A DNA stretch of 64,000 nt from Candidatus Kapaibacterium sp. (GCA_963665665.1 OY762428.1:2816001-2880000); one strand, 5' to 3'. Positions 36,527-56,721 are shown, counted from the stretch's first letter. Translations and numbers: made by a program. The notes: generated from the sequence alone by a model not told the origin.

Positions 36527-36561
36527 CAAATATAGTATTGAATCGGACAGCAGTTGACCGA
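36527..36561 (-). promoter_or_regulatory. WYL-type operator plus -10 box driving the AAA-protease operon
   Basis: Minus strand tcggtca-actgc-tgtccg-N9-TATATTTG. Confidence 0.7.
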
Positions 36562-36585
36562 AACAAAAGCAGAGGAAAAAAATAT
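36544..36585 (+). repeat. About 42-bp direct repeat, copy 1 (operator plus RBS)
   Basis: cggacagcagttgaccgaaacaaaagcagaggaaaaaaatat matches 38131-38173. Confidence 0.9.
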
Positions 36586-36782
36586 TTTATAATATTATTA
36601 TGGTTGAAGATGTTTTTGAAGTAGCAGTCAATTATCTGAAATTGAGACTTGAACAATATTTAAAAAAAGAAAATTTTACCCAAACTTTTTCATAATTTTC
36701 TGTTGAGCATCTACGAATTCATAACAGCTTTACCTGTTTTATTACTCCATTTTGTTTCACCAATAATTTAAATAAAAGTTAA

Positions 36783-37838
36783 TTATTGTTCTATTATCTC
36801 TCCCAAAAACAAATCCGATTCAAGAATCCGATCAATCCCTATATCAAATATATAATTGGAATTGGAACCTAATCTGTATTGGCATTCTGTCTGATACTCA
36901 TCCTTCAGATAACCAAAGCCAACATCTTCAAGCAATTTTATTCCTTTTCCATAATTCATCGTTTTTATGTTGTATTCAAGAGCTACCCCCAAAACAAAAC
37001 AATCCAACAAGTTAGTGTAGTTTTTATCGATAAGAAAATGAATTCCGTTCATTATATCTTCGGTATAATGCGCAATTTCTGAGCTATATCGAAGAGCAAA
37101 ATCGGCATTTGATATTTTACTCTCACACTTCTTCAATAAATCAATACACCATTGTCTGTCGGAAAAATAGAAATCAACTAAATTGATAAAATCAAAATAT
37201 TGCCTGGCATTTTTTAGTAAAACTACAGCTTTTTCGAAAAATGGCCGTGCCCATCTATTCTCTTTTATATGCTCAGAAATACTATAAAGCAGCTTTTTGT
37301 AGTCATCGTAATGATAGCACCTGAAAGCAGCAATTTTCTCATAAATCTTCTTACTCCAATCAATATCGTCCAAATAAACAGCCACAGATTCTGCTATCCC
37401 AATACTCTCACCATCCCTATTTATGATGCTTTGGTATATCTGACTTGCCCACTGCTTATCACCCAACATATCTATCACAGATTTTGCAAGCAGGATATTA
37501 CCTGTTTCATTTAATCCTTTTTCATAAGCACACTTAAAATAATCCCTGCACTTTTCTTTGTTTTTTCCTATAAAGAAGCTGATTTCCCCCAATACTCTGT
37601 ATCCATCTCCAGTTTTAATAATTTTCTCAAGCTCTGATATATATTTAACAGTCCATTGTTTTTCTTCGAAATAATCATATACAAAAACAAAACACTGATT
37701 ATATTCCAAAATTGTCTTGCAGGACTCGAAACCCAAATTCATTAAATCAATATCAACGCTGTCGGATAATTTATGTTTTCCTGATTCCAGAAATTTCTTT
37801 TTCAGAAGACAAATATGTTCAATTGGGTCAATAATCAT
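36783..37838 (-). CDS. Helical-repeat (TPR-like) hypothetical protein
   Basis: About 35-aa repeats LGDKQWASQIY, LDDIDWSKKIY, IKENRWARPFF, FSDRQWCIDLL. Confidence 0.65.
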   Translation of the reverse strand: MIIDPIEHICLLKKKFLESGKHKLSDSVDIDLMNLGFESCKTILEYNQCFVFVYDYFEEKQWTVKYISELEKIIKTGDGYRVLGEISFFIGKNKEKCRDYFKCAYEKGLNETGNILLAKSVIDMLGDKQWASQIYQSIINRDGESIGIAESVAVYLDDIDWSKKIYEKIAAFRCYHYDDYKKLLYSISEHIKENRWARPFFEKAVVLLKNARQYFDFINLVDFYFSDRQWCIDLLKKCESKISNADFALRYSSEIAHYTEDIMNGIHFLIDKNYTNLLDCFVLGVALEYNIKTMNYGKGIKLLEDVGFGYLKDEYQTECQYRLGSNSNYIFDIGIDRILESDLFLGEIIEQ

Positions 37839-38113
37839 ATCTGTTAAAATGTTGATTTTTAAATTTCTTTGCCATTTTATTTTCTATAAGTCTTAATTTG
37901 TTTCTAAAGTATTGCCCATAATCCTCATTCAAAAACACCTGCTTTACAAAGGCATGTATTTAATGAAGGAGTTCTTTACTGGTTAATGGATAAATTATAC
38001 AACGGGGAATTTATTTTAAGAATATTTAAAAATTCAGTTACATCTAACATAACAAAACTCCTGAATTTTAATTATGAAATCTTCTTTTGTTGAATATTCT
38101 TTTTTTATACAAT

Positions 38114-38147
38114 ACAATATACTATATTAGCGGTCAGCAGTTGACCG
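38114..38147 (-). promoter_or_regulatory. WYL-type operator plus -10 box between the repeat-protein gene and WYL1
   Basis: Perfect palindrome cggtca-gcagt-tgaccg (38131-38147); minus strand TGACCG-N9-TATATTG. Confidence 0.75.
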
Positions 38148-38171
38148 AAACAATAGCAGAGGAAAAAAAAT

Positions 38172-39152
38172 ATGGAAGATCCCAAATATAGTCAGATTCA
38201 TTGCGCTTTATATATCTATGATAAATTGCGGTCGGGCGGCGAGTATTCTACGGTGGATTTTCAGGATATGCTGAGAAATGAGAAGAATCTTATTGTTTCT
38301 GACAGAACGCTGCGCAGGTATATCAACGAAATCAAGCTTTACATTGGTTCCCTGAAAAGAATCGGAAATAAGTACTGGAAGATGGAAAGGCAGTTAAGAA
38401 AGCAGGGCGCTAAGATCAGGCTGAATTCGGAGCAGTTGCTGTCGTTCCATATTTTAAAATCTCACCTCAGGCAGTACAAAAATACCGTGATCGAGGAGGG
38501 AATAATTGAACTGGAAAAACTGCTCGACAGGTTTGCGCCCGGCAATGTTTTCGAATCTGAAGGAATTTTCAGAGATAAGAATATAGGGCAGTATGATTAT
38601 ACCCGTGATGATATTGTTTTGCGCCGCCTGCTGAAATTTATTCCCGAAAAAAGCTGGGTTTTGGTGGAATACAAAATGGCGGGCAGGGATAAAATTTCGA
38701 AATTCAGATGCTACCCGCGTATGATGTTTGAATTCAAAGGTGGCGTTTATGTGGTTGTTTATGTAAGCGGCAAGTCGGCGGGGCACAGGGCGCTTGCTCT
38801 GCATAATATCGAATCGGTTGAAAAAATTGAGAAGCGGAAAGCCGATATTCCTGATTTCAATTTCGGCGAATGGTCGAAGGAAAGATTCGGCGTTTTCTGG
38901 GGCGATACCCGGAAGATTAAACTGCTGATAAAAAAGAAATATAAGCGCTATTTCGAAAACAGAACATGGCACGCTACCCAGCGCCTTACCACCGATGCCG
39001 GGGGGAATATGATCCTGACGATGAATGCCCCGGTTGTTCCCGACCTTGTATCCTGGATTCTTTCCTGGCATGAAGCAATTACTGTGATTGAACCGCAGGA
39101 ACTGAAAGACAATGTGATTGATGCCCTGAAGAAAAGCCTGGAGAATTATTAG
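38172..39152 (+). CDS. WYL-domain transcriptional regulator 1 (wHTH-WYL-WCX)
   Basis: VSDRTLRRYI HTH; GGVYVVVY...LHNIESV WYL; WHATQ...LVSWILSW...VIEPQELK WCX. Confidence 0.88.
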   Translation: MEDPKYSQIHCALYIYDKLRSGGEYSTVDFQDMLRNEKNLIVSDRTLRRYINEIKLYIGSLKRIGNKYWKMERQLRKQGAKIRLNSEQLLSFHILKSHLRQYKNTVIEEGIIELEKLLDRFAPGNVFESEGIFRDKNIGQYDYTRDDIVLRRLLKFIPEKSWVLVEYKMAGRDKISKFRCYPRMMFEFKGGVYVVVYVSGKSAGHRALALHNIESVEKIEKRKADIPDFNFGEWSKERFGVFWGDTRKIKLLIKKKYKRYFENRTWHATQRLTTDAGGNMILTMNAPVVPDLVSWILSWHEAITVIEPQELKDNVIDALKKSLENY

Positions 39153-39165
39153 ATTGAAAAATATA

Positions 39166-39199
39166 GCGACACCCTGTGATGCAACTATTGTTATATTGG
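39166..39199 (+). promoter_or_regulatory. WYL-type operator plus -10 box upstream of PD-(D/E)XK gene
   Basis: gcgaca-ccctg-tgatgc-N9-TATATTGG. Confidence 0.6.
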
Positions 39200-39250
39200 T
39201 AAGATTGAAAATATATAAATTTTGTTTTTTGAAAACTATTAGAGGTTAGT

Positions 39251-40537
39251 ATGAATAAAAAAATTGAAACAATTTTTAATGATATTTATTTTAAAGAATT
39301 GTTAAGTTATTATGAACAGGTAGATTATCTTTCAATTTTGAGTTGCGGTAGAAGAGAATTATCACACTCTTCATTTATTGCATGGTTAGCTGATCCATCA
39401 GGAAATCATGGATTGAATGACTTTTTTCTTCAGTCAATTTTTGAAATATTTATTGCCCGTTTTTACAGTAAATCAATAGATATATCAGGCAAAAATATCA
39501 ATATATTTACCGAGAAGACGATAAAATCAGGAAGACTTGATATTTATATTGAATCTGCTGATGAAAAGTGGCAAATTGTAATTGAAAATAAAGTGCATTC
39601 AAAAGAAGGAGATCACCAATTAAAAAAATATTTTGAAGAATTGAATAATAAATACGATGATACATTTTTTCTATATTTAAAACCTCATCTCTTGTCAGGC
39701 TCAGAATATCCACTATCTGCTGATTTTAAAGTAATTTATTATCAAGAAATTATTCCTTTATTAAATTCATCATTTGAGCTTGCAGTAAATAAAGGACATA
39801 TTGAAACTGCATTATTAATAAAATCTTATGTTAGAAGTTTATCAATAATATCATTAGATTCAGTAAATTTTGATGCAATGGCTTTAAGTTGTTTTGAACT
39901 TAAACAATTGAAAAGATTATATAGAAATCATAAATTGTTATTCGAGGATATAAAAAGTGAGATTTCTGAGAGCGAGTCAAATGATTACTTAGATTCGATT
40001 GAAAGTATCAAGAATAGTCTGATGTTCATTAACTTATTAAAATTAATGAGCTTTGGAGAAGTATTGAATTTAGATGATCAAGCTAAAGTAATTTTGTTTT
40101 CAAATGATAAAGATAATTCAAAATACGATGTATTGAATGATGCAGGGATAATTGCTAATTGTGTACCTAAAACTAATTTATTCTATATATTAGTTGAAAA
40201 TTATATTAATAATAATATTGGGATTAATCTAAAAAAATTTGAAGAGGATTTCCCTAATTCTTTTGGAATTGAAGATATTGAAATCGAATTATATAAAGTT
40301 TTTAAAAATAGTAAAGAAGCCCAAATTGAGAACAAAAAACATTACCCTAAACGTAAGAATCCTTTTTTTGATTATGAAAATATTTTTGAACTTGAAGACT
40401 GTGTAATTGTTTTGAAAAAAGCTTGGACAGCAAAACAAAAAAACAAATTGAATGGAAAATCATCAATTGAATTACTTTTACAATTTATTAAAAAAAATGA
40501 GTCAAAGTTTAACATAAGAGTTGAACAATGTAAATAA
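39251..40537 (+). CDS. PD-(D/E)XK nuclease family protein (PDDEXK_4-like)
   Basis: ELSHSSFIAWLADP, GRLDIYI, IENKV and HQLKKY motifs; very low GC. Confidence 0.8.
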   Translation: MNKKIETIFNDIYFKELLSYYEQVDYLSILSCGRRELSHSSFIAWLADPSGNHGLNDFFLQSIFEIFIARFYSKSIDISGKNINIFTEKTIKSGRLDIYIESADEKWQIVIENKVHSKEGDHQLKKYFEELNNKYDDTFFLYLKPHLLSGSEYPLSADFKVIYYQEIIPLLNSSFELAVNKGHIETALLIKSYVRSLSIISLDSVNFDAMALSCFELKQLKRLYRNHKLLFEDIKSEISESESNDYLDSIESIKNSLMFINLLKLMSFGEVLNLDDQAKVILFSNDKDNSKYDVLNDAGIIANCVPKTNLFYILVENYINNNIGINLKKFEEDFPNSFGIEDIEIELYKVFKNSKEAQIENKKHYPKRKNPFFDYENIFELEDCVIVLKKAWTAKQKNKLNGKSSIELLLQFIKKNESKFNIRVEQCK

Positions 40538-40551
40538 CATATTAATTTCTT

Positions 40552-40595
40552 TTCCCCTCCTTTTTGAAGGAGGGGAAAACAGGGGAGGTTGTTTC
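40552..40595. repeat. REP-like hairpin between convergent genes
   Basis: tcccctcctttttgaaggaggggaaaacaggggaggtt is homologous to 26977-27013. Confidence 0.7.
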
Positions 40596-40612
40596 AATTA
40601 TTTCTCCCCCCC

Positions 40613-41593
40613 TCACCCCTCCAGATTCTTCAGCGCTTCTTTATGCATGCTTATCAGTTCATCCCGCAATTTTTCGGGTTTAACGGAGCTAATGCAGGAA
40701 CTCCAGCTTATCAGCCATGATTTCAGTTCCGGGCTTAGCGGAACCAGCATTTCCAGAGACAGGCTGCCGTCCTCGTTATCTTTGAATTTCTGTGTCTGAT
40801 GCCAGAACCTGTTCTCGAAATATTTCCTGCTGTCGGCATTTATTATAATTTCCACTTTTTCGGGTTCGCCCCAGAAAACGCCGAACCTGATTGCCGAGAA
40901 TTTTTCCTGGTTGAAATCCGGAACTTCCACATCTTCATGCACTGCTTCCTGAATGTCCGTTATTCTGTGAATTGCCATAGCTATATAATACTGATATTCC
41001 GGGATATAAACCGCCGCGTAAAGATACCCCGCGTTCGAGAACATCCTTGCTATCCTGCCGATATAACTTTTCTGATACCCACTGCCCGATACATCGTAAT
41101 CAATTGTTACCCATTGCTTTTGCGTGATCGCTTCTATCACTTTCTTAATAATCCTGTCATGCCCGGAGTAATCATAGCTGCCGATATTTTTATCCCAGAA
41201 GAATGGCTCCCCGTCGAACACGTCGCCAACGGCGTGGCTGTCTATCTTATTAAGCAGAGCATTTATCTCTTCCTCGAAGTATGTACCCTTAAAATTTTTC
41301 AGGTTGGCCTTCAGCATATAAAGCGAAAGCAGGTCGTTTTCACGGAAAATTATACCCGAACGTAAATTTTCATCAATATGCCAGATGGTTGTTCTTCCTT
41401 CTTCGGTAAATGTTATTTCCGGGGCAATCGCCAGGAGTGTTTGCATGTCCCGCTGTATTGTTCTCGGGGAATAATCTCCTCCATGATCATTAAGCAAACG
41501 CTCTCGTATTTCACTTGTTTTCAGTTTTTTACCGCTAAGCAGCATTCTGTAAATTGCGAAAATTCTTTCTACCTGGGAATTGATTTCATTCAT
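40613..41593 (-). CDS. WYL-domain transcriptional regulator 2
   Basis: SPRTIQRDM HTH; DKNIGSYDY; RFWHQTQ...LKSWLISW; paralogue of 38172. Confidence 0.88.
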   Translation of the reverse strand: MNEINSQVERIFAIYRMLLSGKKLKTSEIRERLLNDHGGDYSPRTIQRDMQTLLAIAPEITFTEEGRTTIWHIDENLRSGIIFRENDLLSLYMLKANLKNFKGTYFEEEINALLNKIDSHAVGDVFDGEPFFWDKNIGSYDYSGHDRIIKKVIEAITQKQWVTIDYDVSGSGYQKSYIGRIARMFSNAGYLYAAVYIPEYQYYIAMAIHRITDIQEAVHEDVEVPDFNQEKFSAIRFGVFWGEPEKVEIIINADSRKYFENRFWHQTQKFKDNEDGSLSLEMLVPLSPELKSWLISWSSCISSVKPEKLRDELISMHKEALKNLEG

Positions 41594-41612
41594 TTTTCTA
41601 TTCCATTACAAA

Positions 41613-41646
41613 ACGACATTATATGACGCATGGACGCTTATATTTG
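41613..41646 (+). promoter_or_regulatory. WYL-type operator plus -10 box between WYL2 and its divergent gene
   Basis: acgaca-ttata-tgacgc-N9-TATATTTG. Confidence 0.7.
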
Positions 41647-41684
41647 CAAATATTGTGTTTGATAAGCAAGAAAGTACAGAATAC

Positions 41685-42662
41685 ATGACAAAGTTCCTGG
41701 AAAAAATGCTTGACGATAAGCGGGACAGATTTTATACAATCAATGGAATATTTTTTCATAATATCAGGTTCAGGATCCAATGTGCGCGCAAAGTTGAATC
41801 TGCTGACGATATTAACAGGCTGACCGTAGTAGTGGAGGAAATTGCCCGCAATCTGAATGATATTTCCTGGATAAAAAGAATTCTGCTGAATTATTCACCC
41901 AATGCCAGGGCGGAAGAACTTGACAAACTTGCCTCTCTTGCTTTCAAAATAACCGGAGACAGAAATTTTGTTGTTGCTTTGCTGAGCAGGGCTGCAAAAG
42001 ATATTTCCAGAGTCTCCGGGTTTATCAGGAATGCTATGCTTATAGATATTTACCTGAGCAGCAGCAGAAAGCTTACCGGATATTTGAAAAAAAACGACAG
42101 CCCTGATGTTCCGGCGCGGGACTGGCTGAAATTTGCTTCCTTCATTGAAATATTTCACGACATGAACCTTGAGCCGCAGTATAACAATATAATCGGCCTT
42201 TGTTTCGATAATGCTCGTAAATCGATTGTTGATGATAATAATTTCGATGATCTATGTTTCTTCCTTGAGTCTGCCATAGCCTGCAAGGCGCCATGCAGGG
42301 ATATTATTATCAGCAGATACGTGGACTATATAATTTCAATAACCAACAGCGCTGTCAGGAATAACGATGACAGGCTGCGGCTTCTCAGGATTTTTTCGGA
42401 TATTTTCGATAAAAAGTTTTCAGCCAGCGACAGTGAAGTTTTCCATTACATGGCTAAATATTTATCTACACCAAAGGGCAAATGGGCAAAGCAATACTAC
42501 TTTTATATGTACGATATCCGCTGGTGCGAAGTACTTTTCCGCCGCGCGTTCGGCAGGAAGAATTTCGGCCCTGAGGACGATGGAAATTACAGGATACTTG
42601 CCATGCTCATCCGCGAAATTTTCGGCCCGGAGCAGCCCTGCATTATCGAATATATCCAATAA
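41685..42662 (+). CDS. Helical-repeat hypothetical protein, distant paralogue of 36783-37838
   Basis: LNDISWIKRIL, TGDRNFVVALL and MYDIRWCEVLF repeats. Start moved to MTKFLEK, downstream of the promoter. Confidence 0.6.
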   Translation: MTKFLEKMLDDKRDRFYTINGIFFHNIRFRIQCARKVESADDINRLTVVVEEIARNLNDISWIKRILLNYSPNARAEELDKLASLAFKITGDRNFVVALLSRAAKDISRVSGFIRNAMLIDIYLSSSRKLTGYLKKNDSPDVPARDWLKFASFIEIFHDMNLEPQYNNIIGLCFDNARKSIVDDNNFDDLCFFLESAIACKAPCRDIIISRYVDYIISITNSAVRNNDDRLRLLRIFSDIFDKKFSASDSEVFHYMAKYLSTPKGKWAKQYYFYMYDIRWCEVLFRRAFGRKNFGPEDDGNYRILAMLIREIFGPEQPCIIEYIQ

Positions 42663-42814
42663 TTGAATGTTTACGATAAAAAAATCACAAGTGCTTTAAT
42701 TTTGAATTAAGAAACGTTAATGTATAGGAATTAATAAATATATTTTGTAATATTAGGAGGGAATTAAATTCAAAGGAAAAAGAAATATATTATAAATTTG
42801 AAAGGAAATTTATT

Positions 42815-44977
42815 GTGAATTACAGTATTATTCAAGAATTAGTATCTGATTTTCAGAAAAAGTATAAGAAAGAGCCAAACGCTTTATTTAAAGATGACGA
42901 CATATTTTTAGAACAACTCAATGAAATTTTTGAAGAAATACTTGATGAACCATTTGAGAGTATTGAAGATGCTGAAGATTTGTTTTTAATTACAAAAAAT
43001 TATTTTGGAAAAGGAAAAATTAGGGTTATTGTCATTCATACAGATTATTTATTAATCAGATCATTTAAAGAAAAATTTTTAGGTGGTTGGAAGATGCTTG
43101 ATGAAGAAGAATTTGAACCACTTCAAATTGACTGGTTGGATATTAAAGGTATCAAGTATCGTAAGAAGTTAAATGAATTTTGTATCAAATTTAAAAATGA
43201 GAATAATACTTTATGTTTCAATTTAGAATTAATTCTCAATGATAATTTTGATTTAAATTTTACATCGGACCTCTTTTTCTTAATTAAAGATATTGCTAAC
43301 AGAGTAAATGAAAATGATGAGACTTTCGATCAATTAATTGAAAAATACAAGAAAAAAATATCAGAAGAAAAGTATGATGTGGCTTTAAAAATTGTAAATA
43401 ATTTGATTGAAATGAAGCCTGATGATCCACTATTTTACCAATGGAAAGGAGATTGTTTATTAAAAATAACAAAGCTATCAGAATCAATTGATATGTCATT
43501 ACTGGCTTTAAAACTTTTACAAGAAATTAATGGTACTGAATTATCTGATTATAACGAAGATTATCTAAATATATATAATAATTCTAATTATAATATCGGA
43601 CTGGCCTATGATCAACTAGGAGATAAATATAATGGTCTTTGGTATATGAATAAATCGTATCATGCTTGTTTGGACAATAATACCAAAATTTTATGGAAAA
43701 AAGATTTGGATAAAGTATATTCCGATTTTATCCAAAAACTACCGGAAATTGATTATTCAGAAAGAAAATTGATTTTTATCGAAAATGGACTACCTGAATT
43801 TAAGGTCGATACTATACTGCCTTTAGATATATCTAATATGGGATCAATAAAATTTCCTCCATCACATCCCAAAAAAGGTGAACTATATATCGGGCATCCT
43901 TTTAAAAATGATACATATTATCCTGTTGAAGATTATGAAAATCAGTTATTTCAAAGTCAGGTAATGGAACTGAATCATTTGCTTCAATGTCTTGGTGCAA
44001 CAGCTATAAAATCTGAAAATGCAAAAATTGTTACTGACAATGGGGCTGTGTCAATGAGCAGCAATAGTAAATCGAATGGGGAATCAGAACATAGTATGGA
44101 TGGTAAGGCAAAAATTCATGATGTTGACGCATCTACTCAGAATAAATCGAATGTTGAAATCCAAGATGATAAAAAATATTGTAGTTCTTCTGATCAACAA
44201 AAATCTATGACAACAGAGCAGCATTTTAATCCAAAGATTAAGCCATATATACCAGATGATTTAGTTTGGTATCACCACAACGATACATGGCAAAGTTTGG
44301 CAAAACAGAGACTACAGGGAGGCTTATTGATGCATGAAATGACAATTTCCACAAAGAACCTCAGCATAATTAATGAAAATGAAAGAAATAAAATCAATGA
44401 AGATTTCAAAAAGTTAGTAAGTGCAGGGTATTCAAATTTGTTGGTTTCAGGGAAACTTTCGGCTAGTACAAACACACAAACTGAAAGGACAAGTGATGTT
44501 TCATATGCAATTTCTAAAAGTGAACATTTTGAACAAAAAATACAAATTGAATTTGCTCCAATTGATGATTTAACTGAAGAACCGTCAATTTATAAAAAAA
44601 ATGAAATTCAACATGAAAATATACTACAACAAGATTTAACCGAGAATGAAAAAGAATATCAGGAATTAATTGAAGATGCTATCGAAGATGGAGAAATTGA
44701 TGACTCTACAAGAAAATTCTTAGATAAAAGATTAAAACGATTAAATATTACACCGGAAAGAGCAACAGAGATAGAAAATTTAATTTTAAATGCTAATAAT
44801 TATACAGAGGATGAACTTGATTATATCGATATGCTTGAAGATGCGATAGATGATGGAATTATCGATGAAGCAGAAAGAAAATTCTTAGATAAAAGAATGC
44901 AAAGATTAAATATTACTAAAGATAGAGCTTCGGAGATAGAAAGAAAGTTTATACAAAATTTGAACAAAAATTCTTAG
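42815..44977 (+). CDS. TPR protein with putative pore-forming-like central domain and duplicated TerB-like C-terminal helical repeats
   Basis: TPR-like helices (KPDDPLFYQWKG, YNIGLAYDQLG); LLQCLGATAI followed by Ser/Thr/Asn-rich segments; two EDAIxDGxID...RxxRLNIT repeats. Confidence 0.55.
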   Translation: MNYSIIQELVSDFQKKYKKEPNALFKDDDIFLEQLNEIFEEILDEPFESIEDAEDLFLITKNYFGKGKIRVIVIHTDYLLIRSFKEKFLGGWKMLDEEEFEPLQIDWLDIKGIKYRKKLNEFCIKFKNENNTLCFNLELILNDNFDLNFTSDLFFLIKDIANRVNENDETFDQLIEKYKKKISEEKYDVALKIVNNLIEMKPDDPLFYQWKGDCLLKITKLSESIDMSLLALKLLQEINGTELSDYNEDYLNIYNNSNYNIGLAYDQLGDKYNGLWYMNKSYHACLDNNTKILWKKDLDKVYSDFIQKLPEIDYSERKLIFIENGLPEFKVDTILPLDISNMGSIKFPPSHPKKGELYIGHPFKNDTYYPVEDYENQLFQSQVMELNHLLQCLGATAIKSENAKIVTDNGAVSMSSNSKSNGESEHSMDGKAKIHDVDASTQNKSNVEIQDDKKYCSSSDQQKSMTTEQHFNPKIKPYIPDDLVWYHHNDTWQSLAKQRLQGGLLMHEMTISTKNLSIINENERNKINEDFKKLVSAGYSNLLVSGKLSASTNTQTERTSDVSYAISKSEHFEQKIQIEFAPIDDLTEEPSIYKKNEIQHENILQQDLTENEKEYQELIEDAIEDGEIDDSTRKFLDKRLKRLNITPERATEIENLILNANNYTEDELDYIDMLEDAIDDGIIDEAERKFLDKRMQRLNITKDRASEIERKFIQNLNKNS

Positions 44978-45069
44978 TAAGTATGATTTTTGTTCGCAAA
45001 TTGATTTTTAATTAAGTACTATCCAAAAATTTATACTATCGATTTTAATCGATAGAAAAATTTGTTAAA

Positions 45070-45094: not shown

Positions 45095-45140
45095 CCTTAA
45101 ATTTTTCACCCCACCCCACCACAAAAAGGATCTCAAAACC

Positions 45141-48004: not shown

Positions 48005-49141
48005 ATGAATAATATATCAGATTTAATTGCAAAAGAAACAAGTAGTAAAAACTACAAATCATATAAGTATTGTATCGAAAATATTGAGGTTCCAAAAGTA
48101 CAATATGATGATAAACAAGATATCATTATTAAAAAAATTGGTGAGACAGACAAGGGATTAAAAAAAACAAAATCATTGAGAGAATATGCAAAAAAAATTA
48201 ATGGTAATCCATTATTTAAATACTTCCTTGATGGTTCAAGAAGAACTTATAAAGTTGATGATGTAGCCTTTAACAACAAAATTTATCCTATTATTGCTGG
48301 TCAAATAGGAGTTGGAGTTTGTTATCGTGAGAATAGTGATTTATTTAAAGCTTATAAATTTCTTAATCCATTAGCTATTAGTTTGCCAAGTGTTTTGAAT
48401 TCTGTAAGTAAAAATGATAAATTGTATTTCAACCAATTGTTGGAAAAAATAAATCAATTAAATATTTTAAAAAATCAAAATTTAAAATTTAATAGCATCT
48501 TGCCATATAGGTATAATGCTTCAAAAGAAGATGATAAATATGAAGACAGAGGCGTTGCGAAAATTCAAGATGAAATGATACGATTGGAAAAAATAACAGT
48601 AAAAGAGTTAGTTAGAGAAAAAAAACTTAATAAAAATGCATTTCTAATAAAGGATGGCTCTTTAGAATATGAATGGGATAAAAGCGATTTTAAAAATATT
48701 TCTTCGATTAAATCAAACTACGCAAATGTTGTTGGTGTTTCCAAAGCATTTAATCCAGAATCATTATCATCATATAATAAAAAAATTTCCCAAATAATTG
48801 CTGATCTATCAGAATTCCATAGAACGCCTGCATTTATGTATGAAACAACTCGAATTCCAGATGTAAAATTTGCAGTTTGGTATTTGAGGATAAGAAAAAC
48901 CGTAAATCCATTTGATGGGATTGTAAAAATTGAAAAAATTCTTGTTTGGGATAAAGAAGAAGAAGATGGATTAGATTCAGATGAAATTGATTTAATTAGT
49001 GCAAATATTATCAATGAAAGAAATCCTGTATGCTATGGGAAAGATAATAGATGGGCTAAACACTTATACCCCATATTTTTAACAGAGAATTATATTAAAA
49101 GTAAATATCTAAATGATTTTCATTTTATTAGTTTATTTTAG
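48005..49141 (+). CDS. NurA-like (RNase H/PIWI fold) nuclease
   Basis: FLDGSRR, LIKDGSL, VGVSK, WYLRIR and LYPIFLTE motifs; immediately upstream of HerA. Confidence 0.7.
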   Translation: MNNISDLIAKETSSKNYKSYKYCIENIEVPKVQYDDKQDIIIKKIGETDKGLKKTKSLREYAKKINGNPLFKYFLDGSRRTYKVDDVAFNNKIYPIIAGQIGVGVCYRENSDLFKAYKFLNPLAISLPSVLNSVSKNDKLYFNQLLEKINQLNILKNQNLKFNSILPYRYNASKEDDKYEDRGVAKIQDEMIRLEKITVKELVREKKLNKNAFLIKDGSLEYEWDKSDFKNISSIKSNYANVVGVSKAFNPESLSSYNKKISQIIADLSEFHRTPAFMYETTRIPDVKFAVWYLRIRKTVNPFDGIVKIEKILVWDKEEEDGLDSDEIDLISANIINERNPVCYGKDNRWAKHLYPIFLTENYIKSKYLNDFHFISLF

Positions 49142-49152
49142 AGGGTATTAAT

Positions 49153-50826
49153 ATGAGCAAAATAATCGGGAAAGTGGCGGCGACAGAAAAAGCTCCAACA
49201 ACAATTGATTTTTTTTATTTTTGGACTGATAAAAATAGAATATTGAATCCTTTTGATGTTGTAAAAGTTAAACATATTAATAATTCGACAACTTTTGGAG
49301 TTATTGAAGAAATATCTCATATTACTGACTCTGCTAGCTATTTAAGTTGTTATATATCAAATGATTTTGGTAATGTTGATTTGCAACCAAATTCAAATCG
49401 TATAGGACTAAATTATGTTAAAGCAAAGGTTGTTGGAAATAATGATAATATTTATACACCAGTGTTAAATGGGAGTGATGTAAGTATCGCAGATTCAAAT
49501 GAAATTTTGCAAGCTTTAGGGTTAGATAAAATTAAGAATCCGATGCCTTGTGGATATATTGAAATGTATAGGGGAGAGGATAAAAAAATATTACCTGTAA
49601 ATTTCAACGCACAATTTTTAATTGGGCCTGAAGGTGCACATTTGAATATTTCGGGGATATCAGGTCTTGCAGCAAAAACTTCATATTCTATGTTTTTACT
49701 AAAGGCTATTCAAGAAAAATATGGAAATCAATCTGATGATGATGATATTGATTCCGTTGCATTTGTTGTATTTAATGTAAAGGGAAGGGATCTTTTAGCG
49801 ATTGACGAACCCAATACTAATTTAAGTGAAAAGGATAAAGCAATTTATAAAGATATGATGCAACTTAAAACTAACCCATTTGAAAATGTTACATACTTTT
49901 ACCCATATGCAGAACATTCTACTTCAAAAACATTAAGTTATGGAGAAAAAAATGATATTGAAGCACAAATTGACAACAACAAAGCTTTTAAGTATAAATA
50001 TATATACGAAGAAGATAAGGAAAATTTAGAACTACTTTTTGCAAATGTTGAAGATTCCTCAGGGACAATGGGAGATATTATTAATTTTATTGTTAATGGG
50101 AATGGGAAATTTGGTGATGTTGATAGTTGGAATACATTAATGCAGACTGTTTCTGATTATAAACAATCAGGAAGAAAAGATGGAGATAAAGATATTTCAG
50201 TTCTTAGTTGGAGAAAATTCAGTAGAATAATTAGCAAGTCTTTATCACATTCGATATTTCAAAAAAGTATTGTTTCTGGAAAAAATGAACAAAGACTAAA
50301 AGATGCTGTTTCAAATATTAAGAAAAATGAAGTTCAAGTCATTGATATTGCAAAATTAGATGAGGATACTCAAGCTTTTGTTTTTGGTGATGTTGTAAGA
50401 TCTATTTATGACTTAAAGTTAGGGCAAGACAACAGAGATGAAAATGATATACCTTCGAGAATTATTATTTTTATAGATGAATTGAATAAATATGCATCGA
50501 AAGATGTTCCAAAAAATTCACCTATTTTGAGACAAATTTTGGATATTGCAGAAAGAGGCCGTTCTTTAGGGATTATCTTGTTTTCAGTTGAGCAATTTAA
50601 AAGTGCTATTCACGATAGAGTTAAAGGTAACTGTGCTACTAATGCTTTTGGTAGAACAAATGCAATTGAAATTTCAAAAAGTGATTATCATTTTGTTCCT
50701 CAGGTTTATAAAAATATGATGACAAGATTATCTCCCGGTGAATATATTTTAGAGCATCCGGTATTTCGCTCATTATTGAATATAAAATTTCCACTTCCTT
50801 TATATAAACAATTTCCAAATGGTTAA
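49153..50826 (+). CDS. herA: HerA-family ATPase/translocase
   Basis: N-terminal barrel; HLNISGISGLAAKTS variant Walker A; FNVKG; IFIDELNKYA; IAERGRSLGIILFSVEQ. Confidence 0.82.
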   Translation: MSKIIGKVAATEKAPTTIDFFYFWTDKNRILNPFDVVKVKHINNSTTFGVIEEISHITDSASYLSCYISNDFGNVDLQPNSNRIGLNYVKAKVVGNNDNIYTPVLNGSDVSIADSNEILQALGLDKIKNPMPCGYIEMYRGEDKKILPVNFNAQFLIGPEGAHLNISGISGLAAKTSYSMFLLKAIQEKYGNQSDDDDIDSVAFVVFNVKGRDLLAIDEPNTNLSEKDKAIYKDMMQLKTNPFENVTYFYPYAEHSTSKTLSYGEKNDIEAQIDNNKAFKYKYIYEEDKENLELLFANVEDSSGTMGDIINFIVNGNGKFGDVDSWNTLMQTVSDYKQSGRKDGDKDISVLSWRKFSRIISKSLSHSIFQKSIVSGKNEQRLKDAVSNIKKNEVQVIDIAKLDEDTQAFVFGDVVRSIYDLKLGQDNRDENDIPSRIIIFIDELNKYASKDVPKNSPILRQILDIAERGRSLGIILFSVEQFKSAIHDRVKGNCATNAFGRTNAIEISKSDYHFVPQVYKNMMTRLSPGEYILEHPVFRSLLNIKFPLPLYKQFPNG

Positions 50827-50832
50827 TAGAAT

Positions 50833-52392
50833 ATGATTGAAGAAACAAACAAAACTAGAATTGGTAAAGATGTAATTGAGTCTTTAACATTAGCTATGTA
50901 TGATGATCCGATGTTCATTTACAGAGAGTATATTCAAAATGCCGCTGATCAAATAGATATAGCTTTGGAAGAAGGGATGATTTCATCAAAGGAAGAATGC
51001 AGGATTGAAATAAAAATTGATAAACCTGGTAAAATAATTACAATTTCTGACAATGCTACAGGTGTTCAAAAAGAAAATGTGTTATCAGTATTAAAAAGTA
51101 TCGCACAAGGTGTTAAAGATAGAACAAAGCATAAAGGGTTCAGAGGAATTGGTCGTCTTGGGGGATTGGCATACTGTGATAAATTGATTTTTGAGACAAG
51201 TTTTAAAGGTGAAAATGTTAAATCTATTCTTATATGGAATGCAAAAGAATTAAAGCAAATAATTAATGATAGGACTAAAATTGAGGATGCGACAGAAGTT
51301 ATTGATTTAATTACTGATCATGATTTTAAAGAAGAAAATGAGGATAAAAGATATTTTAAGGTAATATTAAAAAACGTAACAAACGATATACTTTTAAATC
51401 ACGAAGAAGTATACAATTACTTATCAATGGTTGCGCCTGTTCCTTATAATAAGGGATTTTTCTTTCAGGAAAAAATTTATGCCAGAGCTAAAGAATATCA
51501 TTTTCCTATAGATGAATATAATTTGTATATCAATAATAATCAAGTATTTAAAGAATATACGACTACGATTTATGAAGGAGAAAAGCATAATAAAAAGAGA
51601 AGTGATGATGAAATTTTTGACATAGATTTTTTTGATATAAAAAATAAATTCGAAGAAATTTTGTGTTGGGGATGGTATAGTGTTTCCACTTTAAAAAAGC
51701 AGATGCCTCCAGTTAATATTGCTAGAGGAATTCGATTAAGAAAAGGTAATATCCAAATAGGTAATGAGAAACAACTAGTAAAACTATTTAAAGAACCTAG
51801 GGGTTCATTCTATTTTTTTGGAGAAGTTCATGCTACTAGTTCTGATTTAATTCCTAATGCAAGAAGAGATTATTTTACTGAAAATAAAATTTTTAAAATT
51901 TTTGAAAAAGGACTCGAATCAAAATTTAGGGAATTACATGAATTATATCATTTCTCGTCAAGTACAAGAAGTGAGAAGAAAAAAATTGATAACCTAATTA
52001 CCTTTACAGAAGAATTTAACAAAAAAGTAGAAAAGGGGTTTACAAGGCCACAGGAGAAGGAAGAATATGAAGATAAATTAAAAAAATACAAAGAGGATGC
52101 AGAAAAAGCAAGTATCAAAATTGAAAAAATCAAGAATAATGTCGCTAGTGATAAAACTAAAAAAAAGATTGTTGAAAAAATTGCAGCTGATATTAAAGTT
52201 CGTACACCAGAAACAAACAAGATAACAAATAAAAAACCAAAATTATTAACAGATAATCTCCAAAAACTCAATAGGCACGATAGAAAATTAGTTGGTAAAA
52301 TATTGTCAATTATCGATAATATTTTAAAAAAGGATTTGTCTGATAATGTTAAACAAAAAATTATTGAAGAACTTAATAAATCGAAAAATTGA
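50833..52392 (+). CDS. GHKL (Hsp90/MORC-like) ATPase with C-terminal coiled coil
   Basis: YREYIQNAAD, ISDNATG, GFRGIGRLGG; S5-like GIRLRKGNIQIG...PNARRDYF. Confidence 0.82.
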   Translation: MIEETNKTRIGKDVIESLTLAMYDDPMFIYREYIQNAADQIDIALEEGMISSKEECRIEIKIDKPGKIITISDNATGVQKENVLSVLKSIAQGVKDRTKHKGFRGIGRLGGLAYCDKLIFETSFKGENVKSILIWNAKELKQIINDRTKIEDATEVIDLITDHDFKEENEDKRYFKVILKNVTNDILLNHEEVYNYLSMVAPVPYNKGFFFQEKIYARAKEYHFPIDEYNLYINNNQVFKEYTTTIYEGEKHNKKRSDDEIFDIDFFDIKNKFEEILCWGWYSVSTLKKQMPPVNIARGIRLRKGNIQIGNEKQLVKLFKEPRGSFYFFGEVHATSSDLIPNARRDYFTENKIFKIFEKGLESKFRELHELYHFSSSTRSEKKKIDNLITFTEEFNKKVEKGFTRPQEKEEYEDKLKKYKEDAEKASIKIEKIKNNVASDKTKKKIVEKIAADIKVRTPETNKITNKKPKLLTDNLQKLNRHDRKLVGKILSIIDNILKKDLSDNVKQKIIEELNKSKN

Positions 52393-54299
52393 TGAAAAAT
52401 GTTGGCAAAAGACGAGTTATATTAATTGAACCAAATTATAAGAACAAATATCCTCCAATTGGATTAATGAAACTTGCGACATATCACCGAAAAATTGGAT
52501 ATGAAGTAGTCTTCTATAAAGGAGATTTAAAGAATTATATTCACCTTGATATTTATACAGACTTACTTTTCAAACTCAAAAAAATTGACAATGGGGTTTT
52601 ATGGCAAGAATATAAATCATTATTAATCAATTATATTAAAACTGGTAAAAACGAATATTTTGAAGAATTGGTAATACTTTCAAAATATGGTATTCTTGTA
52701 AAGGAGTGTTTAAAATATTATAGAAACTACTATTACTCAAAAGAATATTTAAATTTCCCAAAATGGGATAGAGTTTGTGTTACTACACTGTTTACATTTA
52801 ATTGGAATATTACGATTGAGACAATTAATTTTGCTAAAACAATTGTCAAGGATATCAAACAAATTTTTGTCGGTGGTGTATTAGCTACTGTTTTAGCAGA
52901 AGAGCTTGAGAAAGAAACAGGTATTAAGCCTCACAAAGGTCTTTTAAATAAACCTAAGATTATTGATAAAGATAATGAAATTATTATTGACGAACTACCT
53001 CTTGATTATTCGATTCTAGATGAGATTGATTATAAATATCCTGAAAATGATGCTTATTATAGTTATGTAACTAGAGGATGTATAAGAAAATGTAAGTTTT
53101 GTGCTGTATGGAAGATCGAACCAAAATTCGAACAATATATCTCAATTAAAAATAACATCGATAAAGCAAAATTAATATATGGAGAAAAAAGGAACTTACT
53201 TTTATTAGACAATAACGTACTTGCTTCAAATCAATTTCCAAAAATTATCAAAGAAATTAAAGCATGTGGTTTTTTTAAGGGTGCAAAATATATTGAACCA
53301 AATTATTTAGATATTGCAGTGGAAAATCTCAAAAATTGTATAAATGATAAAGCATATATAAATAAAAGTTTTGAATTGTATCACTATCTATTAAATAAAT
53401 TAAAGGGAGATAAACAACAAGAACTTTATAACCTTCTCAATGAATATAATTTATTAAACATTGATACGGCAACAAAAGAAAATATATTATTAGTTTATTT
53501 AGAAGTAAAGGACTTATTTGAGAAACATAGAAATAAAACAAAGAAATTGAGGTACGTTGATTTTAATCAAGGTGTTGACGCCAGATTAATTAATGAGGAT
53601 AATATGCGGCTATTAAGTGAAATCCCAATTAAACCGTTAAGGATTGCATTTGATAATATTGCATACAAAGATATATATATTAAGGCTATTCAATTGGCAA
53701 AAAAGTATGGAATAAATGATCTCTCCAACTATTTATTATATAATGAAAATGATAAGCCATCGGAATTATATGAGAGGTTAGAAATAAATGTTCTTCTATC
53801 TGAGGAGTTAAACATTAGTATATATTCATTTCCTATGAAATATCATCCGATATCTGGAGAAAAATTTTTAACTCGTGATTATCTCGGATTACATTGGAAT
53901 AGAAAATATATTAGAGCCATTCAAACGATTTTAAATTCAACTAAAGGAAAAATTGGAAAAGGTGTAAGCTTCTTTTATGAAGCTTTTGGCAATAATCTAA
54001 ATGAATATCATAAAATTTTAATAATGCCGGAAACCTATATATTATATCGTTTTTTCTTTAGAGATATCGGATTTACTTCTAAATGGTGGCAAGACTATAA
54101 TAATTTATCTATTAATCAAAAAAATAATGCGTTGGATATAATAAAAACTAACGAGTTTAATAATATTGAGAAATATACAAATAGTTATGTTATTAAATCA
54201 TTTATCAAAGAACATTATTTAATTAGTCGAAATGATATTGTAAATCCAAAATCAAAAATTTATAAATTAAAGGAAAAATACAATAGAAATAAAAAATAA
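52392..54299 (+). CDS. Radical SAM enzyme with cobalamin-binding-like N-terminal domain
   Basis: EPNYKNKYPPIGLMKLA, FVGGVLAT, TRGCIRKCKFC, LLDNN, DFNQGVDARL, LRIAFD; TGATG coupling to the GHKL gene. Confidence 0.85.
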   Translation: MKNVGKRRVILIEPNYKNKYPPIGLMKLATYHRKIGYEVVFYKGDLKNYIHLDIYTDLLFKLKKIDNGVLWQEYKSLLINYIKTGKNEYFEELVILSKYGILVKECLKYYRNYYYSKEYLNFPKWDRVCVTTLFTFNWNITIETINFAKTIVKDIKQIFVGGVLATVLAEELEKETGIKPHKGLLNKPKIIDKDNEIIIDELPLDYSILDEIDYKYPENDAYYSYVTRGCIRKCKFCAVWKIEPKFEQYISIKNNIDKAKLIYGEKRNLLLLDNNVLASNQFPKIIKEIKACGFFKGAKYIEPNYLDIAVENLKNCINDKAYINKSFELYHYLLNKLKGDKQQELYNLLNEYNLLNIDTATKENILLVYLEVKDLFEKHRNKTKKLRYVDFNQGVDARLINEDNMRLLSEIPIKPLRIAFDNIAYKDIYIKAIQLAKKYGINDLSNYLLYNENDKPSELYERLEINVLLSEELNISIYSFPMKYHPISGEKFLTRDYLGLHWNRKYIRAIQTILNSTKGKIGKGVSFFYEAFGNNLNEYHKILIMPETYILYRFFFRDIGFTSKWWQDYNNLSINQKNNALDIIKTNEFNNIEKYTNSYVIKSFIKEHYLISRNDIVNPKSKIYKLKEKYNRNKK

Positions 54300-54625
54300 A
54301 AAATATTTTTATTCCTAAAATATCAATAATTTTTTTGGTTTAGATTATGCAACAAATATATACAATTAATAAGCCTCTACCATATTTATCAGGATCCCTC
54401 CTTCAAATTTTTTTATCCTGTCTCACCCAATATTCGAGGCCGGCAGCAAACTCCTCAGTTGCTATCAGCCCCCGTATGTAATTTTATTTCGGCTTTGTGG
54501 GCCATCACCCTATAGGAATTCTGCTAAACAGGCTTTTGTTGATGTAAATGTATGATAATATTGACTTTAATGCCGTTGGTATGTTCTTTGGAAACAATTT
54601 TTTGTGCCGGAAACCCGCTGTTTTA

Positions 54626-55258
54626 TGCTTCCCGAGCGTTCCCCCGAGCTTCCCGAGCATTACCCCGTGCCTGCCGAGCGTTCCCTCATGCTTTCCGAGC
54701 ATTCCCTCGTACTTCCCGAGCGTTCCCTCGTGCTTTCCGAGCTTTCTCCAGAGCTTCCCGAGCGTTCCCCCGAGCTTTCCGAGCATTCCCCCGTGCTTTC
54801 CGAGCATTCCCCCGAGCCTGCCGAGCATTCCCCCGAGCTTCCCGAGCGTTCCCCCGAGCTTCCCGAGCGTTCCCCCGAGCTTCCCGAGCGTTCCCCCGAG
54901 CTTCCCGAGCGTTCCCCCGAGCTTTCCGAGCGTTCCCCCGAGCTTTCCGAGCCTTCCCTCGTGCTTCCCGAGCCTTCCCCCAAGCTTTCCGAGCTTTCTC
55001 CAGAGCCTGATTATCGCTGATATATGTCATCTTAGCGTTGGGATGTGCCGTCTTAACGTTGGTTCGTGTCATCTTAGCCTTGGTTTGTGTTATCTTAGCC
55101 TTGGTATGTGTCATCTTAGCCTTGGTTCGTGTCGTCTTAGCCTTGGTATGTGTCGTCTTAGTCTTGGTATGTTACGTCTTAGCCTTGGTATGTGTCGTCT
55201 TAGCCTTGGTTCGTGTCGTCTTAGCCTTGGTTTGTGTCATTTTAGCGTTGGTTTGTGC
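54626..55258. repeat. Bipartite 21-bp tandem repeat array
   Basis: (ttcccgagcgttcccccgagc) x about 18, junction cctgattatc, then (tcttagccttggtatgtgtcg) x about 11. Confidence 0.92.
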
Positions 55259-55626
55259 TTCCAAAAACATTTTTTCAGGTAAAATTTTACTCAGAAAAGA
55301 CAGAAATTTACTTTTTTGATATAGATTTTCGTTCTATTGGTCCGTTCGATCCATTTTATCAATTGCTGCTTCTATCCGAAAGTGCCGGTAATCGCTTTTG
55401 CCGGGTGAATATTTGGTTTTTAAATATTGGGGTTTGCTATGCCCGGCATGGTTGAGAATCCAAAGGCACATAATTTCCATCGGACGGGGGCGGAAGTGCC
55501 CCGGGCGCTTTGCCGTGACAGTATTATTGTTTCGGATTATCATATTTTTGCTTGCTCCATTATATTTCTGCCATTAATAAAAGTATTCTATTCTATCCTG
55601 ATCGATAGCATGGGAAAGAGTTAAGT

Positions 55627-56637
55627 TCAATCCCTTGGTTCAGGTGTTGGAATATTATACTCCTTCATCCCTTCCTTTAGATTCTTCTTTATCCTGTCGG
55701 CCAGTTCGAGTGGTTCCAGGACTTTTATTACGCCGGTCCAGCTCATTATCCATGATTCGAAGTCCTTTACGAGGGGGACGGTCATTTCCAGTATCATGTT
55801 GCCGTTTTTATCTTTGCTGATCTTCTGTGAGTTGTGCCAGAAACGCTTTTCGAAATACTGTGTGAATTCCTTTTTTATAAGCAGTTTTACGTTTGCCGGT
55901 TTGCCGTGATAAACGCCGAATCTTTCTTTGCTCCACTCGTTGAAGTCGAAAGGAAGGATTTTATCGCTTACTTTTTCGCAGGGGGATATTTGGCTTATGT
56001 TTTGTATCAGCAGAACCCTGTGCTCGTCCACTTTGCCGCAGGTGAACACGACAGCGTAGAGGTTGCCTTTGTTCTCGAACATTGTTCTTGGCAGGCATTT
56101 GAACCTGCTTTTCTTTTTTCCGTCTGATGACAGGTATTCAACTTCCACCCATTGCTTTTCGGCGATATGCCTTATCAGGGGCCTGATTACCAGGTCTTCC
56201 TGTGTGTAGTCGTAGTAGCCGATGTTTTTATTCCATAGCATGCTGTCCATGCGGAATACCTCGCCGGGGAAAAGTTTGTCCAGCTTTTTGTCCAGCTCTT
56301 CAATGCCTTCGGCAATCACCGTTTTTTTGAAATGCTTGATATAGGCTTTCAGCATGTAGTATGAAAGCATTTCGTTCTGCTGGATTCTCACCGTTTTCGT
56401 CGTATTTCCGGTGATCCCCATATATTCCCAGATTCTTTCCTTATGGCTGTAGTCGCGAAAATCCACCAGATTATGCTCAAACATCAGGGCAAGGTCTCTT
56501 TGTATTGATTTTTTCTCTGCTGACAGGCCTTCGCCGTTCAGGTAATTTATTATATCGCTTACCGTTCCGATATGTTCCTTATTGAAAAATTTCAACAGCC
56601 ATAATATTCTGTCGGCTTTTCCCGGTTTCTTTAGCAT
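55627..56637 (-). CDS. WYL-domain transcriptional regulator 3
   Basis: KKSIQRDL HTH; NKNIGYYDY; RFWHNSQ...FESWIMSW...VLEPLEL. Start moved to MLKK (ggag RBS). Confidence 0.88.
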   Translation of the reverse strand: MLKKPGKADRILWLLKFFNKEHIGTVSDIINYLNGEGLSAEKKSIQRDLALMFEHNLVDFRDYSHKERIWEYMGITGNTTKTVRIQQNEMLSYYMLKAYIKHFKKTVIAEGIEELDKKLDKLFPGEVFRMDSMLWNKNIGYYDYTQEDLVIRPLIRHIAEKQWVEVEYLSSDGKKKSRFKCLPRTMFENKGNLYAVVFTCGKVDEHRVLLIQNISQISPCEKVSDKILPFDFNEWSKERFGVYHGKPANVKLLIKKEFTQYFEKRFWHNSQKISKDKNGNMILEMTVPLVKDFESWIMSWTGVIKVLEPLELADRIKKNLKEGMKEYNIPTPEPRD

Positions 56638-56688
56638 TGCTGACTCCAAATAAAAAAAATATAATATTTCAACGGCTGCAAATGTCAT

Positions 56689-56721
56689 TCGACAAATAAT
56701 GTCCCTCAAAATTTACATTCG
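56689..56721 (+). promoter_or_regulatory. WYL-type operator plus -10 box between WYL3 and the lipoprotein gene
   Basis: tcgaca-aataa-tgtccc-N8-TACATTCG. Confidence 0.6.

Follow-up and report, generated by a model that had tools for sequence, protein, structure and literature searches.

Background

The closest described relatives of the system reported here are two WYL-domain activators. DriD of Caulobacter crescentus is a WYL activator of an SOS-independent DNA-damage response; its consensus is described as ATACGAC-N7-GTCGTAT, with Arg37 and Arg41 reading the guanines of each half-site (PMC10853764), and its Glu40 contacts the outermost base (C) of the half-site. In all promoters that DriD regulates, according to the 2026 cryo-EM study PMC13004042, its sites overlap with the -35 position and are equally far from the -10 element; these promoters are without a -35 element, and at the bidirectional driD promoter it is the divergent operon that DriD activates. 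In the Moraxellaceae, DdaA recognises CGWCA-N5-TGWCG and switches on genes of the DNA-damage response and of phage defence, including restriction-modification and CRISPR-Cas genes, and its authors remarked on the kinship of the DriD and DdaA motifs (PMC12392091). In this study, we analysed a stretch of 64,000 nucleotides (nt) from Candidatus Kapaibacterium sp. (GCA_963665665.1 OY762428.1:2816001-2880000; hereafter the window), in which five palindromic boxes (S1 to S5) and three genes for WYL regulators (W1 to W3) lie in a region whose gene and domain annotation, read 5' to 3', spells out a defence island. Since the box and promoter layout matches that of the DNA-damage activator DriD, the defence genes of this island are probably switched on by their WYL regulators.

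Other WYL proteins are known from different settings. BrxR and CapW are WYL repressors of BREX, CBASS and defence islands; BrxR is reported to bind an inverted repeat just downstream of its -10 box (PMC9122601), and CapW one that overlaps the -10 box (bioRxiv 2022.01.04.474952). In actinobacteria, R46 and R50 of PafB recognise a GTC triplet located at -23 to -28 (PMC8635444), and SiwR is described as a homodimeric WYL activator whose palindrome falls, within a divergent spacer, between -35 and -10 (PMC10693628). An original prediction, made from the window's sequence alone, had placed the host in the Fibrobacterota-Chlorobiota-Bacteroidota (FCB) lineage, and rightly so. It is an Ignavibacteria/Kapaibacterium-related member of Bacteroidota, and therefore its primary sigma factor and its -7/-33 promoter type differ from those of DriD.

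Boxes and predicted promoters in the window

All five palindrome-TATATT-type promoters that had been predicted are present exactly as written (Table 1). Each box is a 17-mer and is followed, usually after nine bases (N9; range N8-N10), by a predicted -7 promoter box. S2, S4 and S5 sit in the divergent spacers of W1, W2 and W3, respectively, S1 and S3 having no WYL gene of their own, and in all divergent spacers the -7 box at this distance is directed away from the WYL gene and at the gene on the other side (hereafter the cargo), as had been claimed. Compared with the DriD/DdaA motif, S4 is exact, and it is one of only four matches to CGWCA-N5-TGWCG in the genome; S1, S2 and S5 match if S (G or C) is allowed as the outer base; in the core of S3, one base departs from the motif (GAT instead of GWC). 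The tRNA-Glu promoter has the normal layout foreseen for it, with an upstream TTG element and a perfect TAACTTTG.

S1 and S2 lie inside a 54-nt direct repeat (36529-36582 and 38116-38169, 87% identical) and are for this reason not independent sites but one invention copied once. Along with the box, the duplication took in the two candidate -7 boxes and W1's purine-rich leader. After the S1 copy comes an open reading frame (ORF) of 31 amino acids (aa) at 36600-36695 and no WYL gene; a remnant WYL gene was considered there, and this ORF alone was found.

On its own, the palindrome SGWC-N7-GWCS shows no enrichment in the window, where it occurs 5 times against 2.62 +/- 1.84 in shuffled sequences, 14 of 100 shuffles reaching 5. 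Combined with TAYATT at N9 or N10, the box is found six times in the 5.46 Mb genome and five of these lie within this 20 kb, an enrichment that is partly circular because the pattern was fitted to the sites. Independent support for the sites is their conservation at orthologous loci.

Conservation at orthologous WYL loci

A match to the WYL family at E <= 1e-20 was present in 137 of the 254 genomes of the order. Outside the window 118 loci, oriented by tblastn, were collected (9 + 29 + 80, the first 9 duplicating 9 others), or 121 with the window genes; 118 of the 121 had at least 150 nt upstream, which gave 109 distinct upstream regions. The original prediction had been staked on the motif being present near orthologous WYL genes, and SGWC-N7-GWCS, the perfect box, occurs in 29/109 of these 150-nt regions, compared with 5/109 and 2/109 coding windows and 0/108 and 6/107 more distant upstream windows. 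The signal is specific to the gap length: gaps of 3-11 other than 7 between SGWC and GWCS gave 0-4 matches in the 109 regions, and GWCA-N5-TGWC was found in 17/109 upstream regions vs 0/109 in the control, at one gap length alone. The DriD motif derived from the literature, CGAC-N7-GTCG, was found at 19 of 106 non-window loci and at 0 and 0 in the coding controls. The box is present at AT-rich loci and in a GC-rich cluster alike, at an orthologue protein identity of 30-40%. With up to one mismatch it is found in 53/109 regions, but 60/218 control windows pass too, so part of this gain is noise. At four loci (L093, L097, L098 and L111), runs of a 9-nt unit (TTAGCACA-like) stand 5' of the WYL start in place of the palindromic box.

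The divergent cargo at orthologous loci is varied, and includes ARPP-1 (8 loci), an AAA ATPase, vWA and GmrSD proteins, PDC-S13 and a response regulator. No homology at E 1e-3 was found between window and orthologue cargo proteins, except for the ARPP-1 cargo among 8 loci; because the cargo proteins are not homologous, the conserved unit is regulator plus promoter and not a regulator-cargo pair. At locus L036, a related AAA cargo stands behind the same architecture of box and -7 box as the protease gene at 34345-36474. The pairing of a WYL gene with ARPP-1 (PF20208; E 1e-57 to 1e-90 in 4 scanned loci) behind the same promoter architecture was seen at L018, L022, L023, L029, L031, L033, L037 and L051.

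Spacing between box and promoter

Upstream of 2525 long ORFs of this genome, TAnnTTTG occurs 573 times in sense and 296 times in antisense orientation (TATATTTG: 96 vs 27). From the strand bias of TAnnTTTG, we take it as the local equivalent of the Bacteroidetes -7 box, whose consensus is described as TAnnTTTG with TTTG at -33 (PMC7366714). At the 53 loci having a box with no more than one mismatch, TAnnTT on the strand directed away from the WYL gene is found at N9 in 12 cases, N10 in 4 and N8 in 1, with no other distance exceeding 2. At the 26 loci outside the window whose box is perfect, the match to TAnnTTTG averages 3.50/6 at offset 9 vs about 1.2-2.4 elsewhere, and a match of at least 5/6 is reached at seven loci at N9 and at three at N10, while the nine spacer bases are wholly different between loci. 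As the loci are kin, they were also counted by protein clusters at 50% identity (31 in all). A perfect box is present in 10 of the 31 clusters, with a cargo-side -7 box in 7 of these 10 and a WYL-side -7 box in 5; the fixed spacing of the original prediction thus recurs near orthologous WYL genes. The rule is a box, 9-10 nt and a -7 box, towards one side or towards both.

Two layouts were observed on the WYL strand. In the first, back to back, the candidate WYL -7 box fills the N9 spacer (S2, S5, L022, L023, L029), with the operator immediately downstream of it. In the second, face to face, TATATTTG is followed by its own reverse complement (S4, L037 and L051; nearly so at L031 and L033), so that the spacer is without a promoter box and N9 is still kept; at S4 this reverse complement, CAAATATT, is the candidate W2 -7 box. 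The segment 41639-41654, TATATTTGCAAATAT(A/T), thus joins two face-to-face -7 boxes in one palindrome and recurs at L037 and L051, i.e. at three unrelated WYL loci, which suggests that the divergent promoters may be mutually exclusive. A symmetric layout, with a -7 box, N9, the box, N9-10 and a second -7 box, was seen at many loci of the GC-rich cluster, and L121, L018, L113, L109, L100 and L079 show it; here one dimer site would serve promoters both ways.

The WYL regulators

W1, W2 and W3 are the sole members of their WYL family in the 5.46 Mb genome, and with 33% (W2) and 40% (W3) identity to W1 they are paralogues. All three have the winged helix-turn-helix (HTH), WYL and WCX make-up: the WCX domain (PF25583) was found in W1-W3 and PADLOC WYL models match all of them, with WYL (PF13280) above threshold in W3 only (22.2 vs 21.8 bits). 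The AlphaFold model of W2 (mean predicted local distance difference test score, pLDDT, 84.7) shows a helix-turn-helix with wing, a helical linker, a beta barrel and an alpha/beta C-domain. A profile built from 33 family members matched DriD chains at E 1e-16 to 4e-16, compared with 0.0067 for PafBC, 0.029 for BrxR and 0.78 for CapW. In a full-length Foldseek search with the W2 model DriD again came first (E 2e-15), followed by PafBC, BrxR (7e-8) and CapW (6e-7); the structure entries 7U02, 7TZV, 8TP8 and 9PFQ/9PFV/9PGA are those of DriD according to the papers' data statements.

Of the recognition-helix residues, R48 is the same in all 33 sequences, while R44 and Q47 reach a conservation of 90% or more; R44, Q47 and R48 correspond to DriD Arg37, Glu40 and Arg41; W3 has Lys at the first arginine position (R44). 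The position of DriD Glu40 is held by Gln in 86 of the 109 loci and by Arg in W1 (RTLRR). Proteins of the Q type pair with C...G boxes at 22 of 23 box-bearing loci, while the W1 boxes S1 and S2 carry G...C. This suggests two putative channels, W1 with S1 and S2, and W2/W3 with S3-S5.

The island and its genes

Coordinates of the boxes, predicted promoter elements and genes are collected in Table 1.

Table 1. Boxes, predicted -7 boxes and genes of the defence island, in window coordinates
Feature	Position	Strand	Remarks
AAA+ ATPase fused to M41 peptidase, 709 aa	34345..36474	-	Peptidase_M41 1.1e-17, ClpB_D2-small, AAA; DolB-like
S1 -7 box TATATTTG, N9	36527..36534	-	score 6/6; directed at gene 34345-36474
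S1 box CGGTCAACTGCTGTCCG (minus-strand reading)	36544..36560	-	orphan W1-type box, 5' of AAA+/M41 protease gene
'Repeat protein 1', 351 aa, presumed S2 cargo	36783..37838	-	no known family
S2 -7 box TATATTGT, N9	38114..38121	-	directed away from W1
Candidate W1-strand -7 box TATATTAG	38123-38130		back to back with S2 -7 box
S2 box, perfect palindrome CGGTCA-N5-TGACCG	38131..38147	-	24 nt 5' of W1 start codon
W1, HTH-WYL-WCX regulator, 326 aa	38172..39152	+	recognition helix SDRTLRRY
S3 box GCGACACCCTGTGATGC	39166..39182	+	second half-site degenerate; orphan, between W1 stop codon and nuclease gene
S3 -7 box TATATTGG, N9	39192..39199	+	
PD-(D/E)XK nuclease, 428 aa, S3 cargo	39251..40537	+	PDDEXK_4 7e-24; PADLOC candidate system PDC-S26 1e-30
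W2, HTH-WYL-WCX regulator, 326 aa	40613..41593	-	recognition helix SPRTIQRD; model folds like DriD
S4 box ACGACATTATATGACGC	41613..41629	+	19 nt 5' of W2 start codon; exact DdaA motif match
S4 -7 box TATATTTG, N9	41639..41646	+	own reverse complement CAAATATT directly after
'Repeat protein 2', 325 aa, S4 cargo	41685..42662	+	no known family
W3, HTH-WYL-WCX regulator, 336 aa	55627..56637	-	WYL + WCX domains; aligned with W1, W2
S5 box TCGACAAATAATGTCCC	56689..56705	+	
S5 -7 box TACATTCG, N8	56714..56721	+	
First gene of lipoprotein-like operon, S5 cargo, 321 aa	56782..57747	+	signal peptide with lipobox
PDC-S29 gene, end of lipoprotein-like operon	58902-59954		

The start of W3 is likely ATG 56637 and not TTG 56709, judging from its alignment with W1 and W2 and from a TATATTTT box 24 nt before this ATG. 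The two 'repeat proteins' gave no Pfam, NCBIfam or PADLOC family, and Atlas yielded weak leads alone; they are barely similar to each other (BLASTP E 0.005). About 275 nt (37839-38113), free of any substantial ORF, separate the S2 -7 box from the start codon of the presumed cargo, and this gap could be a long leader, a small RNA or the result of a mis-called start.

Between the S4 cargo and W3, 42815-47798 encodes a 720-aa protein with a PDC-S48-like C-terminus and then a 905-aa UvrD helicase fused to a PD-(D/E)XK nuclease (GajB-like matches), a further candidate defence pair without a WYL box. The four-gene block at 48005-54299, low in GC (26-29%) and likewise without a preceding WYL box, encodes a 378-aa protein without family, a HerA/mad8-like ATPase, a HATPase_c_3 protein and a radical-SAM/B12-binding protein, and may be a defence system. 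Two adjoining tandem arrays of 21-nt units, with 18 and 11 copies in register, occupy 54564-55299 between this low-GC operon and W3; their GC is higher than that of the flanks, and overlapping ORFs on both strands would encode heptad repeats.

Extent of the regulon

A genome-wide scan (recA and others) had been suggested as a check, and a wider regulon was not borne out: genome-wide, a perfect box with a -7-like box at N8-10 gave 28 matches vs 36, 29, 30 and 21 at control offsets. The regulon is local, as candidates outside the island equal the positional controls and the island sites alone stand out. The notion of an 'island-wide' response was likewise overstated, since no box was found before the units starting at 42815, 45081 and 48005, and looser scans of the window gave no further credible sites. 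A fifth perfect palindrome (CGTCAAATGTTGACC, 9532-9546) lies outside the island, has no -7 box at N8-10 and is probably due to chance. A sigma-70-type promoter scan of 36300-42900 (29 sites vs 27.4 +/- 5.8 in shuffled sequences) was uninformative.

Discussion

The boxes described here are very probably WYL operators, and on balance we lean towards the reading that W1-W3 are homodimeric DriD-like activators, whose box stands in for the upstream promoter element. The two conserved arginines of the recognition helix (R-T-I-Q-R) would read each GWC half-site, and the 17-bp palindrome would occupy the position of the upstream (-33) element, its end lying 9-10 nt from the TAnnTTTG -7 box. By analogy with DriD, the regulator, when bound to a ligand such as single-stranded DNA (ssDNA) or another product of DNA damage or phage attack, would then hold RNA polymerase on a promoter without an upstream element and switch on the gene directed away from the WYL gene. 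Given that 19-51 nt separate the box from each WYL start codon, the dimer so bound probably also lowers expression from the promoter of the WYL gene itself. Within the island, W1, with Arg at the DriD Glu40 position, probably serves the G...C boxes S1 and S2, and W2 and W3, with Gln there, probably serve the C...G boxes S3-S5.

The comparison with DriD carries most of this reading. DriD is the closest match of the W1-W3 family by both sequence and fold and has the same domain order, and the single-gene size of W1-W3 suits a homodimer. The operator core CGAC-N7-GTCG with its AT-rich gap is shared, as are the two base-reading arginines; as in DriD, the box covers the -35 position at a fixed distance from a -10-type box (the promoter elements here being predicted), and the promoter is bidirectional, with the gene predicted to be activated directed away from the regulator gene. 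In the didA probe and the engineered -35 variant given in the Methods of PMC13004042, the distance from the last G of the 15-mer to the -10 element is 10-11 nt by our own count, and the same count at the window sites gives 10 nt (N9 plus one flanking base) or 11, although this comparison could shift by 1-2 nt. Unlike DriD, the family has Gln, or in W1 Arg, in place of Glu40, its WYL ligand pocket is poorly alignable, and its regulon is local, with three paralogues and five sites in one defence island and no genome-wide DNA-repair regulon. With DdaA, the family shares the motif, exactly so at S4 (PMC12392091); however, the DdaA box is placed about 50 bp upstream of the start site of transcription in PMC12392091, where sigma adaptation is argued against, whereas the boxes here adjoin the -7 box, and DdaA is one global regulator in place of three local ones.

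The original prediction of PafBC-like activation is partly supported as to its general type, since the geometry relative to the cargo -7 box is that of WYL activators and not of BrxR/CapW, but the closest model is the homodimeric DriD/DdaA and not PafBC. The promoter-proximal GWC does lie 11 nt before the TA of the -7 box, i.e. at about -24 to -26 if this TA is assumed to be at -12/-11, and promoters without an upstream element are also found with the actinobacterial PafBC and SiwR (-26 element). On the other hand, PafBC, as a heterodimer or a tandem fusion, reads a non-palindromic site through one HTH and binds DNA only when RNA polymerase is present, and its similarity to our family is weaker than that of DriD. 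Membership of the PafBC group was rejected, as W1-W3 are single units of 326-336 aa with separate promoters, none adjacent in one operon, and an asymmetric -26 element of the PafBC type was rejected as well, the boxes being two-fold symmetric with both half-sites conserved.

Several observations weigh against activation of the DriD type. The WYL regulators studied so far inside defence islands, BrxR and CapW, are described as repressors (PMC9122601; bioRxiv 2022.01.04.474952), and a BrxR-like layout, with the box just after a -10-type box, is found on the WYL strand at the back-to-back loci, where N9 is at the same time occupied by the candidate WYL-strand -7 box. Several cargo -7 boxes are the perfect consensus (TATATTTG) and may thus perhaps not need an activator, while the missing -33 element is weak evidence, given that in Flavobacterium johnsoniae promoters -33 is reported as not findable (PMC7366714). 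The kept spacing could come partly from common descent of the whole promoter-operator module, and 80 of the 109 orthologous upstream regions are without a perfect box. As to the proteins, the link between Arg or Gln and the outer base is based on a single R-type locus, the DriD alignment is confined to the WCX domain and the WYL domain's distal part, and a single aligned ssDNA-contact residue, the equivalent of Arg204, is retained, in W1 and W3 but not in W2 (alignment as read).

Repression in the manner of BrxR/CapW stays a serious rival, because the defence-island WYL regulators studied so far repress and the WYL-strand layout at S2 and S5 resembles that of BrxR, yet we consider it rather unlikely. 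Here, an unliganded WYL dimer on the box would block RNA polymerase both ways, covering the -33 region of the cargo promoter together with the start site or leader of its own gene, until a phage or DNA-damage signal on the WYL domain released it and so derepressed the cargo. The domain architecture, the defence-island context with varied cargo and a palindromic operator near the regulator's own start codon are all shared with BrxR/CapW; CapW is described as repressing bidirectionally (bioRxiv 2022.01.04.474952), a 5-bp spacer is likewise found in the BrxR repeat, which follows closely on a -10 box (PMC9122601), and at the five back-to-back loci a TATATT-type box lies 0-3 nt before the palindrome on the WYL strand. 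Typical defence cargo such as a nuclease or an AAA protease, or GmrSD and ARPP in orthologues, is possibly costly if expressed, and strong consensus -7 boxes suit promoters that need silencing. However, the family is much closer to DriD than to BrxR or CapW in sequence and in fold, and the operator is the DriD/DdaA box (PMC12392091). In contrast to the BrxR and CapW operators, the box lies upstream of the cargo -7 box at a fixed distance, not after or over the -10 box, and it is kept 9-10 nt 5' of the -7 box in 7 protein clusters with a variable spacer, a constraint that simple occlusion does not need; the face-to-face loci (W2, L031, L033, L037, L051) keep N9 without any WYL-strand box in the spacer. 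The varied divergent cargo, a pattern described for BrxR-family regulators, is found here with an activator-type relative.

A dual switch, in which the dimer would sit on the box in both states, repressing when unliganded, activating when liganded and repressing its own gene throughout, seems improbable. DriD itself has been proposed as a negative autoregulator, with a box 10 nt from its own start codon, and yet activates the divergent operon (PMC9186387, PMC13004042), and the boxes in the window are likewise close to the WYL start codons (19-51 nt). Furthermore, -7 boxes at N9-10 flank the box on both sides in one orthologue cluster (L121, L018, L113, L109, L100), and one bound dimer must therefore govern two promoters there. 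Against this, high-affinity operator binding by DriD is reported to require ssDNA (PMC10853764), contrary to a resident unliganded repressor, and sequence cannot separate such a switch from pure activation with basal leakiness.

That the palindromes are chance by-products, remnants of duplicated promoter DNA with no regulator bound, is very improbable: while S1 and S2 are repeat copies, S3 is degenerate and the bare palindrome is not enriched over shuffled sequences, the box is conserved in a gap-specific way before distant orthologues in AT-rich and GC-rich genomes, its distance to the -7 box is conserved too, and it is identical to the experimentally proven operator of the nearest characterised relatives.

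Conclusions

For DriD and DdaA, motif, protein family and positional rule have all been published before; what appears to be new here is the phylum, the kind of sigma factor and promoter, and the local use within a defence island, apparently shared out among paralogues. We tentatively propose, as a possibility held with some doubt, that activation in the DriD mode can be carried over to Bacteroidota with their unusual primary sigma factor, where a 17-bp WYL box 9-10 nt before TAnnTTTG would be a protein-bridged substitute for the -33 element, driving transcription in either or both directions; three paralogues with Arg/Gln divergence would provide separate channels, and an inducible activator would turn on the different defence modules, in contrast to the derepression described for BrxR/CapW.

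WYL control of defence islands has so far been described as repression (BrxR, CapW), whereas the evidence from these loci favours use of the activator branch (DriD/DdaA) locally for defence cargo, in a phylum whose WYL regulators and activator-dependent promoters have yet to be worked out. The island offers a compact test of DriD-type assembly with a sigma factor of different upstream-element logic, and the rule of box, N9 and -7 box is a simple means of predicting which promoters of Bacteroidota genomes are under WYL control and, through them, candidate defence genes.

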